Below are positions 1 through 2,792 of a DNA stretch of 2,875 nt, one piece after another. Under the pieces are notes generated by a model. The model was given only the letters and a program-made list of their open reading frames with translations, did no database searches and had not been told where the DNA came from. This DNA comes from a virus (taxonomy: Duplodnaviria; Heunggongvirae; Uroviricota; Caudoviricetes), in IMG/VR virus record IMGVR_UViG_2693429700_000017; one strand, given 5' to 3'. Numbering within the stretch: the first letter of the stretch is position 1; the number at the start of each line of letters is the position of its first letter. The position numbers and the translations under genes are program-made.

Positions 1-97
1 CCTTTGCGGTAAATTTACATCGCACTCCTCTTGTGCCATAGTAATCGGGCACTGGCAAAATCCAGTGCCGGGATTGGCGTCCCGGATTACTAAAAGG
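1..97. repeat. 97-bp direct repeat, copy 1 (identical to 2779-2875); may extend beyond the window edge
   Basis: Base-by-base comparison of 1-97 with 2779-2875 shows 97/97 identity. Contains the palindrome GTAAATTTAC (9-18) and a hairpin GGCACTGG-CAAAAT-CCAGTGCC (48-69). Confidence 0.9.
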
Positions 98-104
98 CGC
101 ATTC

Positions 105-124
105 ACCGCGCAAGCGGTTTTTTT
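105..124 (+). terminator. Candidate intrinsic terminator immediately 3' of the repeat
   Basis: Stem ACCGC (105-109), GCAA tetraloop (110-113), stem GCGGT (114-118), followed by a run of 7 T (118-124). The stem is only 5 bp, so the call is moderate. Confidence 0.45.
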
Positions 125-281
125 ATGCGTATAGCACGGCCACATTCGTATTATGGTGGGCTGTGTGGGGGCACCGAAAGGTGCGCCGGGTCCTTTTAGC
201 CGGTTACGCCAACCCTGCACAGTTCACCACCAACCGATTGGCGTCGGTAGTGGTGATTAACCAGACTAAAAGGTAACCACT

Positions 282-977
282 ATGACAGCTACAAAAAGCA
301 CGTCCATTTTTTCTTTCGAATCCCAAGCCGATATACGGGTAATCGTCATTAATGGTGAGCCATGGTTTATCGCTTCAGATGTTTGTCGGGCTATAGGCAT
401 AGCAAACCATCGAGATGCTGTTCGAAAACTTGATGATGATGAGAAGGGCGTCGCTTCAACCGACACCCCTGGCGGTGAGCAAGAATCGATCATCATCTCC
501 GAGTCAGGCCTCTACACACTGATCCTCCGCTGCCGCGACGCAGTGACACCAGGCACTATCCCCTACCGCTTTCGTAAATGGGTTACAGGTGAGGTTCTTC
601 CTCAGATCCGCCGCACCGGAAGTTACATTAAAAACTCGCTCCCGCAGGAAGAACGCATAAAGATGGTTGCCGACCAGGTAGCCAACGCCACGGCGTCAGC
701 AGTGATAAAGGCGATGAAGATAGAGAACAAAACCTACAGCGCCCCGCTGAAGCCAGGCTACCGCAGCCTGATTCACTCGCCGTCTGGTGTTCTCGGCCTG
801 ACGGAGAACTCACTGCTGATGAATCTGCTGAACCAGTTACAGGAAGACGGGCACGACGTATCGGGCGCGGCGGCGGAGCTGACCACCATGTTCTGCTACA
901 TCGTCGGTGTGAGCAAATGCCTGCGTGATATCCAGACGCACGCGGAGTACATCAACGACAAAGCAGGGTTCTTCTGA
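282..977 (+). CDS. Bro-N domain protein (phage antirepressor-like, KilA-N/Bro-N superfamily) with an uncharacterised C-terminal half
   Basis: 231-aa ORF with AAGG Shine-Dalgarno (270-273) 8 nt upstream of ATG. The N-terminal ~110 aa carry the hallmark Bro-N pattern: F-x-F, VINGEPWF-x-A-x-DV, LDDDEKG, GG-x-Q, ISESGLY-x-LIL, FRKWVTGEVLPQIRRTGSY. The C-terminal ~115 aa have no motif I recognise. Assignment is from remembered family consensus, not a search. Confidence 0.8.
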   Translation: MTATKSTSIFSFESQADIRVIVINGEPWFIASDVCRAIGIANHRDAVRKLDDDEKGVASTDTPGGEQESIIISESGLYTLILRCRDAVTPGTIPYRFRKWVTGEVLPQIRRTGSYIKNSLPQEERIKMVADQVANATASAVIKAMKIENKTYSAPLKPGYRSLIHSPSGVLGLTENSLLMNLLNQLQEDGHDVSGAAAELTTMFCYIVGVSKCLRDIQTHAEYINDKAGFF

Positions 978-985
978 CGGGCGGT

Positions 986-1010
986 GGCACAGGGATGTGC
1001 CTTTAAATAA
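986..1010 (+). terminator. Weak candidate terminator or attenuator after ORF1
   Basis: Perfect hairpin GGCACA-GGGA-TGTGCC (986-1001) followed by TTTAAATAATT. The T tract is interrupted, so it is probably leaky at best. Confidence 0.3.
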
Positions 1011-1148: not shown

Positions 1149-1167
1149 ATTTACCCTAATGGTAAAT
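1149..1167. promoter_or_regulatory. Operator-like palindrome, site B: ATTTACC-CTAAT-GGTAAAT
   Basis: Perfect 7-bp inverted repeat with a 5-bp spacer, 39 bp upstream of the ORF2 start. Same half-site as the palindromes at 2682-2698 and 2775-2792. Confidence 0.5.
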
Positions 1168-1205
1168 CCCGCTTAAAGAAGCATCTATATATTATGAGGT
1201 GATGT

Positions 1206-1841
1206 ATGCCACAACAACTGCTGAATCCGGCAAAGGTAACTGAGGTTTTCGCTCATCTGAACGAAACTCCAGACAACCGCGCCCTGTATTCAGAGTTAGT
1301 GAACGGCAACGATGTCACATCTGATGTCAAAGGCGTTTCTCTGGCTCCTGGATACCGCGTTGTCCGTGTAGACGATCGTAAGAAAGGCGAGATTCCACAG
1401 GCGCACTTTGAACTGTCATTGATAAATGACCTCACCGAAGAGGTAGTGTATTACAATCGTGTCATTATCCAGCCTGACAGCTATCTTAACTGCCGTCCTG
1501 TCACGCAGATATTGGTATGGAGAACCCAGAAGCCTAAGCATCGTGCTGTGCTTCATGATTTCGCCGGCATCATCTTCATGAACTACCTCTTGGAACGGTA
1601 CGATATCATCGTGTCTGATCGCAACCAGACTCATGAAGGCATGTCGTTCTGGCAGGCTCGCATGTATGACGCACTGGAACTTGGCCTCCACCTCTATGGT
1701 TACGACATGATGACATGCGAGCTGATAGAGATGAATAACGAGGAAGAGCTTGAGAAAGGTGAAACCTGGTTGTGGGGTGATGCGGAAAACTTCCAAAACA
1801 GATTGGCCATAATTTCAAAGCATAAGCTGCCAATAAAATAG
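1206..1841 (+). CDS. Hypothetical protein, 211 aa, no recognisable domain
   Basis: Uninterrupted 636-nt ORF with GAGGT Shine-Dalgarno (1196-1200) 5 nt before ATG, and a canonical intrinsic terminator directly downstream. No transmembrane segment, no signal peptide and no catalytic motif I can name. Acidic C-terminal stretch (EMNNEEELEKGE). Confidence 0.75.
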   Translation: MPQQLLNPAKVTEVFAHLNETPDNRALYSELVNGNDVTSDVKGVSLAPGYRVVRVDDRKKGEIPQAHFELSLINDLTEEVVYYNRVIIQPDSYLNCRPVTQILVWRTQKPKHRAVLHDFAGIIFMNYLLERYDIIVSDRNQTHEGMSFWQARMYDALELGLHLYGYDMMTCELIEMNNEEELEKGETWLWGDAENFQNRLAIISKHKLPIK

Positions 1842-1849
1842 TTCTTTAA

Positions 1850-1870
1850 GCCCGCGACGCGGGCTTTTTT
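1850..1870 (+). terminator. Rho-independent terminator of ORF2
   Basis: GCCCGCG-A-CGCGGGC perfect GC-rich inverted repeat (1850-1864) followed by TTTTTT (1865-1870), 9 nt after the ORF2 stop codon. Confidence 0.75.
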
Positions 1871-1884
1871 GTGTCTGCGGATTC

Positions 1885-1896
1885 CCGCCCGGGCGG
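1885..1896. repeat. GC-only 12-bp palindrome CCGCCCGGGCGG between the two terminators
   Basis: Perfect palindrome read directly from the sequence; function unknown. Confidence 0.3.
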
Positions 1897-1910
1897 CGGT
1901 GGCATTCGTT

Positions 1911-1934
1911 AAAAACAAGGCCGCAAGAGCGGCC
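1911..1934 (-). terminator. Rho-independent terminator of ORF3 (minus strand)
   Basis: GGCCGC-AAGA-GCGGCC (1919-1934) read on the minus strand is followed by TTGTTTTT (complement of 1911-1918). The stem overlaps the ORF3 stop codon by 1 nt. Confidence 0.6.
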
Positions 1935-2662
1935 TAGCGTTTCGCTTTGTGCTCGTCCCAGCACGTTTTGCACCATGCCATTAAGCCATCCGCATTTTGA
2001 TTATTAGGGTAAAAGCTGGTTCGTTTTCTGCGGACATTACAAATTGGGCACCACTTCATATGACGTGTATTCTTTGGGCCATCGAGACACCTTGCACACC
2101 ACTTAGTCAATCCATCTGGATTTTTTGACGATTTCCTGAATTTTTCATATGGAAGGTTTATTCTGCATCGCAAACACTGCTTGCGGGCACTTGAAACTTC
2201 GTTAGCTGATTCTTCTTTTGACGGCGATACAGAAGGTATTCTTGCTGGCTCTGATACTGCCTGAGGTGCTTTTCTAGGTGACTGAGACGATACGTCATCA
2301 CCAGGGAATCTTCCATGATATGCCGGACGCGTTAACACCCCAGGTGGAAGCTCTGCTGTAAATGGCTTTGGCTGAATCAGTTGCCTCTCTTTTGCTAACT
2401 CCTGCTGTTTATAATATGTCTGGATTACCGCACTATCATAAGCAGAAGGTGCGGAAATATTAGGCGCATTACCTCCAGTTTTTTGAAACTGAGTAGAGGT
2501 GTGTTCTATCACCTGTGTACGATTAATCGTTATCTCCCCATCTTCGGTCTTTATCGTTTTGTTATGATTAACGACCGTACGATCAGAGATCTTAGTCTTG
2601 TTCTGGTTGATAACGTAAATAATCACCGCAACCACACCAACAACTATCCAGAAAACTTCCAT
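1934..2662 (-). CDS. Membrane-anchored protein with two tandem C4 zinc-ribbon-like repeats (hypothetical)
   Basis: 242-aa ORF with GAGGAA Shine-Dalgarno 5 nt upstream of the ATG (minus strand). N-terminal hydrophobic helix (EVFWIVVGVVAVIIYVI) followed by basic residues. Pro/Ser-rich low-complexity linker. The C-terminal ~72 aa hold two 30-residue repeats with identical spacing C-x2-C-x8-F-x7-DGL-x2-WC-x2-C. This gene is the most AT-rich in the window (hand counts about 35-47% GC in 60-nt samples). Confidence 0.75.
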   Translation of the reverse strand: MEVFWIVVGVVAVIIYVINQNKTKISDRTVVNHNKTIKTEDGEITINRTQVIEHTSTQFQKTGGNAPNISAPSAYDSAVIQTYYKQQELAKERQLIQPKPFTAELPPGVLTRPAYHGRFPGDDVSSQSPRKAPQAVSEPARIPSVSPSKEESANEVSSARKQCLRCRINLPYEKFRKSSKNPDGLTKWCARCLDGPKNTRHMKWCPICNVRRKRTSFYPNNQNADGLMAWCKTCWDEHKAKR

Positions 2663-2681
2663 TGCTTTTCCTCACAATAAC

Positions 2682-2698
2682 ATTACCTTAAAGGTAAT
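2682..2698. promoter_or_regulatory. Operator-like palindrome, site C: ATTACC-TTAAA-GGTAAT
   Basis: Perfect 6-bp inverted repeat with a 5-bp spacer, 20-36 bp upstream of the ORF3 start codon. Same half-site as sites A and B. Confidence 0.5.
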
Positions 2699-2719
2699 AT
2701 CTTGCTTTCAGGTGATCAA
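2691..2719 (-). promoter_or_regulatory. Candidate ORF3 promoter (minus strand TTGATC-17 nt-TACCTT) overlapping site C
   Basis: Minus-strand -35-like TTGATC (complement of 2714-2719) and a weak -10-like TACCTT (complement of 2691-2696). The -10 is poor and sits inside the palindrome; low confidence. Confidence 0.2.
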
Positions 2720-2750
2720 GCGTTAAACGCAATCAACCAAATACGGTTGA
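2720..2750. promoter_or_regulatory. Two further palindromes in the region upstream of ORF3: GCGTT-A-AACGC and TCAACC-N6-GGTTGA
   Basis: Perfect inverted repeats at 2720-2730 and 2733-2750, read directly. They could be regulator sites or RNA hairpins. Confidence 0.3.
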
Positions 2751-2774
2751 TTTTAATATTTCTTCGCGTTTATC

Positions 2775-2792
2775 ATTACCTTTGCGGTAAAT
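2775..2792. promoter_or_regulatory. Operator-like palindrome, site A: ATTACC-TTTGC-GGTAAAT, straddling the start of the terminal repeat
   Basis: Half-site ATTACC (2775-2780), 5-bp spacer, half-site GGTAAAT (2786-2792). The right half and spacer recur at window positions 3-14. Overlaps the palindrome GTAAATTTAC. Confidence 0.45.

Follow-up and report, generated by a model that had tools for sequence, protein, structure and literature searches.

Sequence comparison places the stretch of DNA analyzed here (2,875 nucleotides; hereafter the window) within an epsilon15-like (Uetakevirus) E. coli prophage. The window runs collinear with NZ_CP148401 and with the prophage of NZ_AP041805, and it shares 95-99% identity with parts of TL-2011b, phiV10, and ZX5. 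The window opens with a c4/isrK-antirepressor unit on the plus strand. A promoter-like site at 14-42, with an identical copy at 2792-2820 on the same strand (TTTACA-17-(TG)CATAGT), has a -10 block that is invariant in seven relatives and a predicted transcription start at ~49, where the isrK model match begins. The leader RNA (36-124, plus strand) comprises an isrK-type sRNA with its terminator (49-124) and a candidate a1/b1 C4-target element (36-88); the isrK match (Rfam, 77.9 bits; gathering score, 50) overlaps a c4-a1b1 match (RF03163) that, at 45.1 bits, falls just below its gathering score of 46.7. Downstream are a C4-type antisense RNA (149-234, plus strand; full-length match to RF01695 at 77.7 bits, gathering score 45) and ORF1 (282-977, plus strand), and no ORF was found between 234 and 282, the icd position.

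ORF1 joins a Bro-N domain (residues 17-107) to a C-terminal domain (residues 150-226) resembling the antirepressor (Ant) of SPC32H. It matches Pfam Bro-N (2.2e-21) and PHROG 130, anti-repressor Ant (3.3e-63), and its C-terminal domain matches chain E of PDB 5D50, "Anti-repressor protein" (1e-13). Positions 1-1002 of the window, which include ORF1, are 99% identical at the nucleotide level to ZX5, where the features are labelled "anti-repressor" and "ash family protein." Overexpression of ORF4 of ZX5, the sole annotated antirepressor of that phage, lowered lysogeny (PMC9782041); because of the 99% nucleotide match, we took ORF4 to be the counterpart of ORF1. Secondary reports (PMC9638917) describe SPC32H Ant as binding the repressor protein. 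Judged from these similarities, ORF1 is a Bro-N::Ant fusion antirepressor. The LexA box CTGT-N8-ACAG is absent from the window; it belongs to a neighbouring short ant gene of relatives (at 5047 in the NZ_AP041805 prophage and 19958 in SPC32H). In TL-2011b, a separate arc-ant pair adjoins the module.

The remainder of the window holds two cargo genes. ORF2 (1206-1841, plus strand) encodes a 211-aa protein of PHROG 1349 (unknown function; 2.9e-78) and is followed by an intrinsic terminator at 1848-1866. ORF3 (1934-2662, minus strand; terminator at 1918-1935 on the same strand) encodes a 242-aa protein that carries a membrane anchor at its N terminus and CxxC zinc-ribbon repeats at its C terminus; it belongs to PHROG 6762 (2.8e-147) and has weak matches to endonuclease VII and Lar-like zinc ribbons. 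Pfam and PADLOC returned nothing informative for either protein (zero matches for ORF2). At its far end, positions 2779-2875 directly repeat positions 1-97 on the plus strand, because the window ends inside the start of a second operator-promoter-c4-antirepressor module. The same tandem layout is found in NZ_CP148401 (95.8% identity over 2877 bp), which has a whole second copy of the module, the two copies being 83.5% identical over ~1.1 kb. We also considered a small circular element or plasmid, for which the repeat would be a 97-bp terminal repeat, and rejected it: the window is collinear with tandem modules in a chromosomal prophage, and plasmid matches to the window are partial.

The spaces between these genes contain a recurring palindrome. 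The sequence-only reading of the window had reported three copies, with a common half-site and a 5-bp spacer, all in noncoding DNA. Direct reading confirmed the three, and each lies outside the three real ORFs, as does a fourth copy that had been missed. Site A (2775-2792, ATTACC-TTTGC-GGTAAAT) lies directly 5' of the c4/isrK-antirepressor promoter, overlapping its -35 by one base, with its centre at about -43.5 from the predicted transcription start; its right half recurs at 8-14. It had been placed at a repeat boundary, and a repeat is indeed there, but the boundary is a window-edge effect of the tandem module. Site B (1149-1167, ATTTACC-CTAAT-GGTAAAT) is 39 bp 5' of the ORF2 start codon and is kept in the NZ_AP041805 prophage (at 7359) and in NZ_CP148401 (at 6652). 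Site C (2682-2698, ATTACC-TTAAA-GGTAAT) is 20-36 bp 5' of the ORF3 start codon (2662, minus strand), and identical copies are present in the NZ_AP041805 prophage (6113), NZ_CP148401 (8184), and TL-2011b (34478). The additional copy, site D (1049-1065, ATTACC-TCACG-GGTGAT), lies 72 bp past the ORF1 stop codon and has one mismatch; the orthologous place holds a perfect site in NZ_CP148401 (9344) and TL-2011b (33333), and its GGTGA half-site variant is also seen at OR of TL-2011b, phiV10, and Tyrion.

Sites A, B, and C have in common the core TTACC-N5-GGTAA, the extra T or A being flank that leaves the spacing unchanged. The exact core occurs three times in the window against 0.01 expected, with at least three copies in 0 of 200 shuffles, and the core with up to two mismatches occurs seven times against 0.93 expected. 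The central base is T in site A and A in sites B, C, and D, as read from the window. Centre to centre, A and C are 93.5 bp apart, and D and B 101 bp. In promoter scans of the window, site A alone had a convincing promoter; the candidates at B, C, and D were weak or ambiguous. Site C overlaps every candidate core promoter of ORF3, and site D overlaps a promoter-like TTGCAG-17-TACTAT at 1022-1050. At site B, the scans showed no convincing sigma-70 promoter; this site may serve in promoter control, as a roadblock, or as a partner site for cooperative binding.

The motif extends beyond the module. The 17-bp palindrome A-TTACC-N5-GGTAA-T heads most transcription units of epsilon15-like phages, including those at OR and OL, the unit after the replication genes, and the terminase, head, tail fibre, lysis, and int units. 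Perfect TTACC-N5-GGTAA sites number 10 in TL-2011b, 8 in phiV10, 11 in epsilon15, 9 in Tyrion, 10 in SPC32H, and 10 in the NZ_AP041805 prophage, and whole epsilon15-like genomes hold 14-19 dispersed noncoding sites when one mismatch is allowed. In TL-2011b, the genome for which noncoding location was checked exhaustively, annotated CDS leave 16.8% of the genome uncovered and 0.82 sites would be expected; all 14 sites with up to one mismatch fall outside annotated CDS (chance probability, ~1e-11). The sampled host DNA, in contrast, held no perfect site in 120.5 kb, against 10 in a 40-kb prophage, so the comparable host density that the sequence-only reading had named as a refutation of its proposal was not found, and a host regulon is unlikely.

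Conservation of the sites is of the kind expected for protein-binding DNA, as had been suggested. The 58 perfect sites compared have identical half-sites but 41 different spacers, with A or T as the central base in 114 of 116 counts (both strands counted per site); likewise, the spacer varies and the half-sites are invariant among seven orthologous copies of site A. In each genome examined, sites lie in the gap between rep and cro (OR) and just downstream of rep (OL), and the epsilon15 GenBank record labels seven such 17-mers "protein_bind: repressor, lysogeny." The palindromes are very probably copies of an already known prophage-repressor operator, present at 10-15 promoter regions per phage genome. 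A full-text literature search for the half-site strings returned no relevant paper.

The repressor in question, Rep, is a 194-aa two-domain helix-turn-helix protein homologous to SPC32H Rep (4e-42 between PDB 5D50_A and Rep of the closest complete relative). The window has no repressor gene; in that relative, Rep is encoded ~28 kb from the module, which bears out the fallback option of the earlier reading, a regulator encoded outside the unit. Its broader proposal, a single regulator for the module, holds insofar as the sites form one family with an external regulator, but the motif is phage-wide and not specific to the module. A SPC32H-family Rep gene, whose product is annotated in NZ_AP041805 as WP_000836290.1, is flanked by the motif at both OR and OL in the NZ_AP041805 prophage, TL-2011b, phiV10, Tyrion, epsilon15, and SPC32H. 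Rep proteins with only 43% overall identity go with the same half-site, and the block NLVNRW in their N-terminal domains is invariant. A search of 50,697 phage records gave 37 with Rep homologues, 36 of them full-length and all of these in phages of enteric hosts; each full-length match examined was epsilon15-like. The remaining match, the cI protein of Pseudomonas phage PseuP_224, is distantly homologous to Rep in the N-terminal domain (39% identity over residues 4-68), and directly 5' of its gene are ATTACC-N4-GGTAAT, AATACC-N4-GGGAAT, and TTTACC-N4-GGTAAC. A related-locus search with a Rep alignment recovered only repressors that were 99-100% identical, and thus added no further test of covariation. 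In a Stx phage whose isrK/C4-ant module is homologous, the promoter differs and the site is absent; the search detected no Rep homologue in the Stx phage group. By these comparisons, the motif goes with the phage backbone, not with the module.

Together, these data make it very probable that A, B, C, and D are operators of Rep, the main lysogeny repressor of an epsilon15-like prophage, a link drawn from database annotation, genomic position, and co-occurrence. The distances that recur between paired sites (62, 48, and 17-18 bp) fit a tetrameric palindrome-binding repressor, as reported for SPC32H Rep. Secondary reports (PMC9638917) describe that protein as a dimer of dimers on palindromic sites, and as noncleavable, being removed by the antirepressor and not by RecA-mediated cleavage.

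We infer that, in a lysogen, Rep would physically occupy A-D, possibly looping the DNA by pairing A with C and D with B, and that this occupancy would silence both the antirepressor unit and the cargo genes. Site A adjoins the -35 of the promoter predicted to drive the a1b1/isrK leader, the C4 RNA, and Bro-N::Ant; site C would cover the divergent ORF3 promoter, and the space separating ant from ORF2 holds D and B. Were Rep to be inactivated, as the neighbouring short Ant under LexA control might do, the sites would clear, and Bro-N::Ant, subject to the C4 RNA, would be made and would reinforce the lytic switch. In this way, the sites of the window would tie an accessory immI-like region into the phage-wide Rep circuit.

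The sign of regulation at site A is less certain. Lambda CI activates at PRM from a comparable position, so that a centre at -43.5 would also allow activation, which makes repression there uncertain. An extended version of the model, which we consider unlikely, is that Rep operators serve as portable joints that bring cargo under the lysis-lysogeny switch and that site A could activate the C4/isrK RNA in the lysogen. The cassettes c4-ant, ORF3, and ORF2, and a YafO cassette in relatives, are each headed by an operator, and some mosaic breakpoints are located within operators. If the model were true, newly recombined cargo would at once come under the lysis-lysogeny switch, and activation by Rep at site A would couple protein-based and RNA-based immunity.

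Other explanations fared worse than the Rep operator model. It is improbable that the main binder is another phage regulator, such as a Cro-like protein divergent from rep, or a host factor. Operators are common to CI and Cro in lambda-type switches, and a 76-aa gene does lie opposite rep across two OR sites; one would expect the Rep operators to be used by a Cro-like protein as well. This is, however, compatible with Rep binding and not exclusive of it, and the dispersed sites fit a lysogeny-maintaining protein, the epsilon15 annotation names a repressor, and the same half-sites accompany the Pseudomonas cI homologue, which implicates the Rep N-terminal domain. More doubtful still is the suggestion that the 17-mers are primarily recombination linkers at cassette boundaries, with regulation secondary. 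Homology between the window and TL-2011b stops at 1062, within site D, that with phiV10 and Tyrion starts at 8, inside the right half of A, and the tandem repeat of NZ_CP148401 begins at the left edge of site A. These are few junctions, however, and most copies (those at OR, OL, terminase, and head among them) are flanked by family-conserved genes; a short conserved operator heading each transcription unit would fall at module junctions even if it played no dedicated part in recombination.

We regard it as highly improbable that the palindromes function as hairpins in the transcripts, signalling RNA processing, stability, or termination, instead of as protein-binding DNA. Each site can form a 5-7 bp stem, and the epsilon15 record also marks separate intergenic RNase III sites, but these stems are only weakly stable (-3.7 to -5.3 kcal/mol) and lack a U-tract. 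Moreover, the arms are fixed in sequence, beyond what pairing would require, over the 58 sites. No scanned site has substitutions in both arms, and one-mismatch variants alter a single arm, mostly unpairing it (TCACC, GGTAT, GTACC). The sites also lie upstream of promoters, as with A 5' of the -35, or at divergent promoters, outside both transcripts. Finally, binding and autoregulation of the module by the Bro-N protein of ORF1, the candidate favored by the sequence-only reading on the view that Bro-N is a DNA-binding fold, can be practically dismissed despite the location of site A 5' of ORF1: epsilon15 and SPC32H, with 11 and 10 perfect sites, have no Bro-N CDS (zero tblastn matches), the motif stands at OR and OL beside rep and far from the module, ORF1 has a C-terminal domain homologous to the SPC32H Ant, which secondary reports describe as repressor-binding, the presumed ZX5 counterpart behaves like an antirepressor on overexpression (PMC9782041), and the homologous c4-ant module of a Stx phage lacks the site.

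The motif is therefore best viewed as the phage-wide operator of a structurally studied repressor family, and not as the mark of an autonomous, self-regulated 2.8-kb element. The window makes a modest addition, a regulatory wiring diagram for epsilon15-like prophages of E. coli. As the C4-gated Bro-N::Ant and the adjacent cargo genes have Rep operators, their expression is predicted to follow the loss of Rep, with positive feedback in induction as a possible outcome, and the operators indicate when the cargo proteins ORF2, ORF3, and YafO are likely made.

The nearest known counterparts are the epsilon15-like operators themselves (epsilon15, SPC32H/SPN1S, and phiV10; Rep PDB 5D50/5D4Z), which have the identical 17-bp ATTACC-N5-GGTAAT, the same dispersed intergenic distribution, and the same phage backbone, with the Rep family present in the closest complete relatives. 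Epsilon15 and SPC32H lack this accessory module (Bro-N::Ant with C4 RNA, ORF2, and ORF3), and hence its copies of the site, and sites A-D are unannotated among the records examined, unlike the seven of epsilon15.

The module itself resembles immI of P1 and P7. C4 antisense RNA is the P1/P7 immI-type regulator of antirepressor synthesis, immI is arranged as Op51-P51-c4-icd-ant, and P1 has dispersed C1 operators. The unit described here likewise has a C4 RNA with candidate upstream a1/b1 targets followed by an antirepressor gene, and its promoter has an operator of the primary repressor, whose operators scatter genome-wide. The 17-mer operator of P1 C1, however, is asymmetric, and C1 is not known to be related to Rep; the site here is symmetric, there is no icd, and a Bro-N::SPC32H-Ant fusion takes the place of Ant1/2. 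The c4-ant unit would work like immI, but it is not the P1 unit. In P22 immI (Mnt/Arc operators, ant, and sar RNA), as predicted here, an accessory immunity region places its antirepressor under negative control of its own, with an antisense RNA as one component, but the window has no mnt or arc, and has instead the operator of the primary repressor and a C4-type RNA. Like the CI/Cro operators of lambda, the sites are palindromic 17-mers with a variable centre and a helix-turn-helix repressor, occur in multiple copies around rep/cro, and likely act in cooperative pairs; unlike them, they extend past OR and OL and are found at 10-15 places in all, late and accessory units among them. The stoperators of mycobacteriophage L5 are asymmetric 13-mers that block elongation in an orientation-dependent manner. 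They share with the sites described here the placement of many repressor sites in short intergenic spaces genome-wide, whereas the present sites are perfect palindromes, several of which overlap core promoters.

The window contains three intergenic palindromes, with exactly the positions and sequences that the sequence-only reading had given: site B (1149-1167, ATTTACC-CTAAT-GGTAAAT), site C (2682-2698, ATTACC-TTAAA-GGTAAT) and site A (2775-2792, ATTACC-TTTGC-GGTAAAT), all read directly from the sequence. Their common core, TTACC-N5-GGTAA, has three exact matches in the window against 0.01 expected, a number that none of 200 shuffles reached. When two mismatches were allowed, the window gave seven matches against 0.93 expected; among the weaker ones, site D (1049-1065, ATTACC-TCACG-GGTGAT, one mismatch), missed by that reading, is on sequence grounds a genuine fourth site. 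Its orthologue is perfect in two relatives (NZ_CP148401 and TL-2011b), and its GGTGA half-site variant recurs in several phages at OR, which separates the repressor gene from the divergently oriented cro-like gene. None of the four sites lies within the three credible ORFs of the window. The "repeat boundary" at which site A had been placed is an artefact of the window end, positions 1-97 being repeated at 2779-2875.

By homology, the window is a piece of an epsilon15-like (Uetakevirus) Escherichia coli prophage. It shares segments of 95-99% identity with phages TL-2011b, phiV10 and vB_EcoP_ZX5 and is covered fully by a prophage of NZ_AP041805 that sits between yfgI and guaA. It is also collinear with the E. 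coli chromosome NZ_CP148401 (95.8% over 2877 bp), which carries two tandem operator-promoter-c4-antirepressor modules with ORF2 and ORF3 in between. Rfam searches revealed a P1-type immunity-I layout at the 5' end, with a putative a1/b1 target element (36-88), an isrK-type sRNA (49-124, 77.9 bits) and a full-length C4 antisense RNA (149-234, 77.7 bits), followed by ORF1 (282-977, plus strand); these RNA elements (36-234) stand between site A and ORF1. Pfam, PHROG and PADLOC searches assigned no function to ORF2 (1206-1841, plus strand; PHROG 1349) or ORF3 (1934-2662, minus strand; PHROG 6762). ORF3 has a membrane anchor and repeated CxxC zinc ribbons, weakly like endonuclease VII or Lar ribbons, and in relatives a YafO-family toxin cassette, also preceded by an operator, fills the ORF2 slot. 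A 10-codon ORF (MRKFDEYEGV), preceded by a strong Shine-Dalgarno sequence (AGGAGG), lies in 1089-1134, between sites D and B; this arrangement occurs in the NZ_AP041805 prophage as well.

The palindrome had been proposed to define a module, but scans of whole genomes with TTACC-N5-GGTAA, counting perfect and one-mismatch sites, showed that it is dispersed through each of six epsilon15-like phages or prophages, with 8 to 11 perfect copies apiece: 10 perfect and 4 one-mismatch sites in TL-2011b, 8 and 6 in phiV10, 11 and 4 in epsilon15, 9 and 6 in Enterobacter phage Tyrion, 10 and 8 in SPC32H, and 10 and 9 in the 40-kb NZ_AP041805 prophage. The host does not carry it at similar density: 120.5 kb sampled from the chromosome of the NZ_AP041805 strain held no perfect site and eight one-mismatch sites. 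The 14 TL-2011b sites (at most one mismatch; 0.82 expected by chance) all lie outside annotated coding sequence, which leaves only 16.8% of the genome uncovered (chance P ~1e-11). Placement is syntenic from phage to phage. OR has two or three sites, as does OL, which immediately follows the repressor gene; pairs stand behind the replication genes and ahead of the small terminase gene; and the head operon, tail-fibre gene, lysis cassette and int are each preceded by one site. Seven 16-17-mers in the epsilon15 GenBank record, annotated "protein_bind, repressor, lysogeny", have the sequence ATTACC-N5-GGTAAT. Two operator copies fall inside the small terminase gene where it is annotated at 675 bp, in phiV10 (41-715) and the NZ_AP041805 prophage (27601-28275); in TL-2011b, epsilon15 and SPC32H the start is further downstream and the copies are intergenic. 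The 675-bp version probably reflects a misannotated start.

We considered what might recognize these sites. The palindromes are poor candidates for RNA stems, as the hairpins are weak (-3.7 to -5.3 kcal/mol) and the half-site sequence is fixed. Across 58 perfect sites, all ten half-site positions are fixed while the spacers take 41 different forms, with A or T at the central base in 114 of 116 counts (both strands counted per site). Likewise, site A orthologues in seven genomes have TTTGC, TTTTC, GCAAA or TCACA as spacer, with constant half-sites and -10. Fixed half-sites with a free spacer suggest that a symmetric protein recognizes the sequence itself, and speak against an RNA stem.

Two proteins were weighed as the binder, the Bro-N protein encoded by ORF1, which the sequence-only reading had favored, and Rep, the main lysogeny repressor of epsilon15-like phages, and three distribution tests distinguished between them. 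No Bro-N coding sequence is present in epsilon15 or SPC32H, both of which bear the motif. The homologous isrK/C4-ant module of a Stx phage (Traversvirus) is headed by a separate promoter, TTGACG...TATATT, and even a scan at two mismatches gave no Rep-type site near it. Rep homologues were found in 37 of 50,697 phage records, none of them a Stx phage; the 36 full-length matches come from phages that infect enteric bacteria, and each one examined is epsilon15-like. The remaining match, a partial one, is to Pseudomonas phage PseuP_224 cI, which has an N-terminal domain with 39% identity to Rep residues 4-68 and an unrelated C-terminal half. Directly upstream of this cI (2421-2475) are three palindromes, ATTACC-cgta-GGTAAT, AATACC-cgca-GGGAAT and TTTACC-tgtt-GGTAAC, with half-sites as for Rep but a 4-bp spacer. 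It follows from these tests that the half-site travels with the Rep N-terminal domain, and ORF1 was rejected as the binder. Six Rep proteins, down to 43% overall identity, go with the same half-site, and an NLVNRW block is invariant within their N-terminal domain, the DNA-binding domain in SPC32H Rep. In the closest complete relative, the repressor aligns along its entire length with SPC32H Rep (5D50 chain A; 4e-42). The broader proposal of one symmetric regulator for all sites, with encoding outside the unit as its fallback, appears borne out.

ORF1 is instead an antirepressor. Behind its N-terminal Bro-N domain is a region (residues 150-226) homologous to the 86-aa SPC32H "Anti-repressor protein" (PDB 5D50 chain E, 1e-13), and the full protein matches PHROG "anti-repressor Ant" (3.3e-63). 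At the nucleotide level, window positions 1-1002 share 99% identity with phage ZX5, where the features are "anti-repressor" and "ash family protein"; overexpression of ZX5 ORF4, a Bro-N protein and the one annotated antirepressor of that phage, cut lysogeny ~1000-fold (PMC9782041). The segment encoding the SPC32H-Ant-like C-terminal domain (748-1000) is 96% identical in nucleotides to the end of a different "Ant" gene, TL-2011b 31300-32244, which adjoins an Arc-like repressor. This domain also exists alone, as a short ant under LexA control; in relatives such a gene, with LexA box CTGTATAAATATACAG, directly adjoins the region. Several antirepressors with different inputs appear to have one Rep-binding domain in common. 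A hairpin at 2731-2752, AATCAACC-AAATAC-GGTTGATT, is terminator-like by score, and its AACC-N6-GGTT core is kept in phiV10 and Tyrion, after the short ant. It may insulate the c4-ant unit from the LexA-controlled ant.

A sigma-70-type promoter with extended -10 (TTTACA-17-TGcCATAGT) is predicted at 14-42 and 2792-2820. Because the -10 of the 14-42 copy ends 7 nt ahead of the first isrK-match base, we infer that it is the real start of the c4-ant unit. The last base of site A is also the first of the c4-ant promoter's -35 hexamer, and the site is centred near -43.5 relative to the predicted start, a placement compatible with activation; from a second promoter-like site (TTGATT-18-TATCAT, 2747-2776), transcription would begin inside site A. 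The sequence is compatible with either repression or activation by Rep there and does not decide between them. Site C overlaps every candidate ORF3 core promoter, and site D overlaps the -10 and start region of a candidate promoter (TTGCAG-17-TACTAT); the promoter scan found no credible promoter at site B. Elsewhere in the phage, at PL and at the unit after gene P, a promoter sits within a pair of sites spaced 62 bp apart, the first lying before its -35 and the second covering its -10 and start. A published account (PMC9638917) describes SPC32H Rep as a tetramer on its palindromic sites, in which the paired DNA-binding domains belong to different dimers, and describes Ant as breaking the tetramer apart. 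Given such a tetramer, A and C, whose centres lie 93.5 bp apart, could plausibly be occupied as a pair, as could D and B (101 bp). In the proposed circuit, SOS would induce the short Ant, Rep would be stripped off its operators, and site A would open; Bro-N::Ant, with the C4 RNA gate still on it, would then reinforce the decision.

Homology breakpoints between mosaic relatives fall within operators. TL-2011b homology to the window stops at 1062, within site D; that of phiV10 and Tyrion begins at 8, in the right half of site A; and the NZ_CP148401 tandem repeat (5505/8271) begins at the left edge of site A. The phiV10 site A spacer, GCAAA, is the reverse complement of the TTTGC in the window. 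The isrK/C4 region is matched by more than 100 records of Stx-converting phages; in vB_EcoP_phi296 (2380-2560), the sole Stx phage examined, the module is part of the nin region; it has a promoter of its own and lacks a Rep-type operator.

Since motif, dispersed distribution and repressor family are all those of epsilon15/SPC32H-type phages, the palindromes can be regarded as an already known feature, of which the window copies are predicted, unannotated instances. The points of interest left are the coincidence of mosaic breakpoints with operators and a site A position compatible with activation. Unlike the epsilon15 and SPC32H sites, the window copies sit in an accessory region that those phages lack. 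In P1 immI, a primary-repressor operator is followed by c4 RNA and ant. The window unit, with a predicted primary-repressor operator before c4 RNA and ant, resembles it in function, but it has no icd gene and its operator is symmetric, so that it is not a member of that system.
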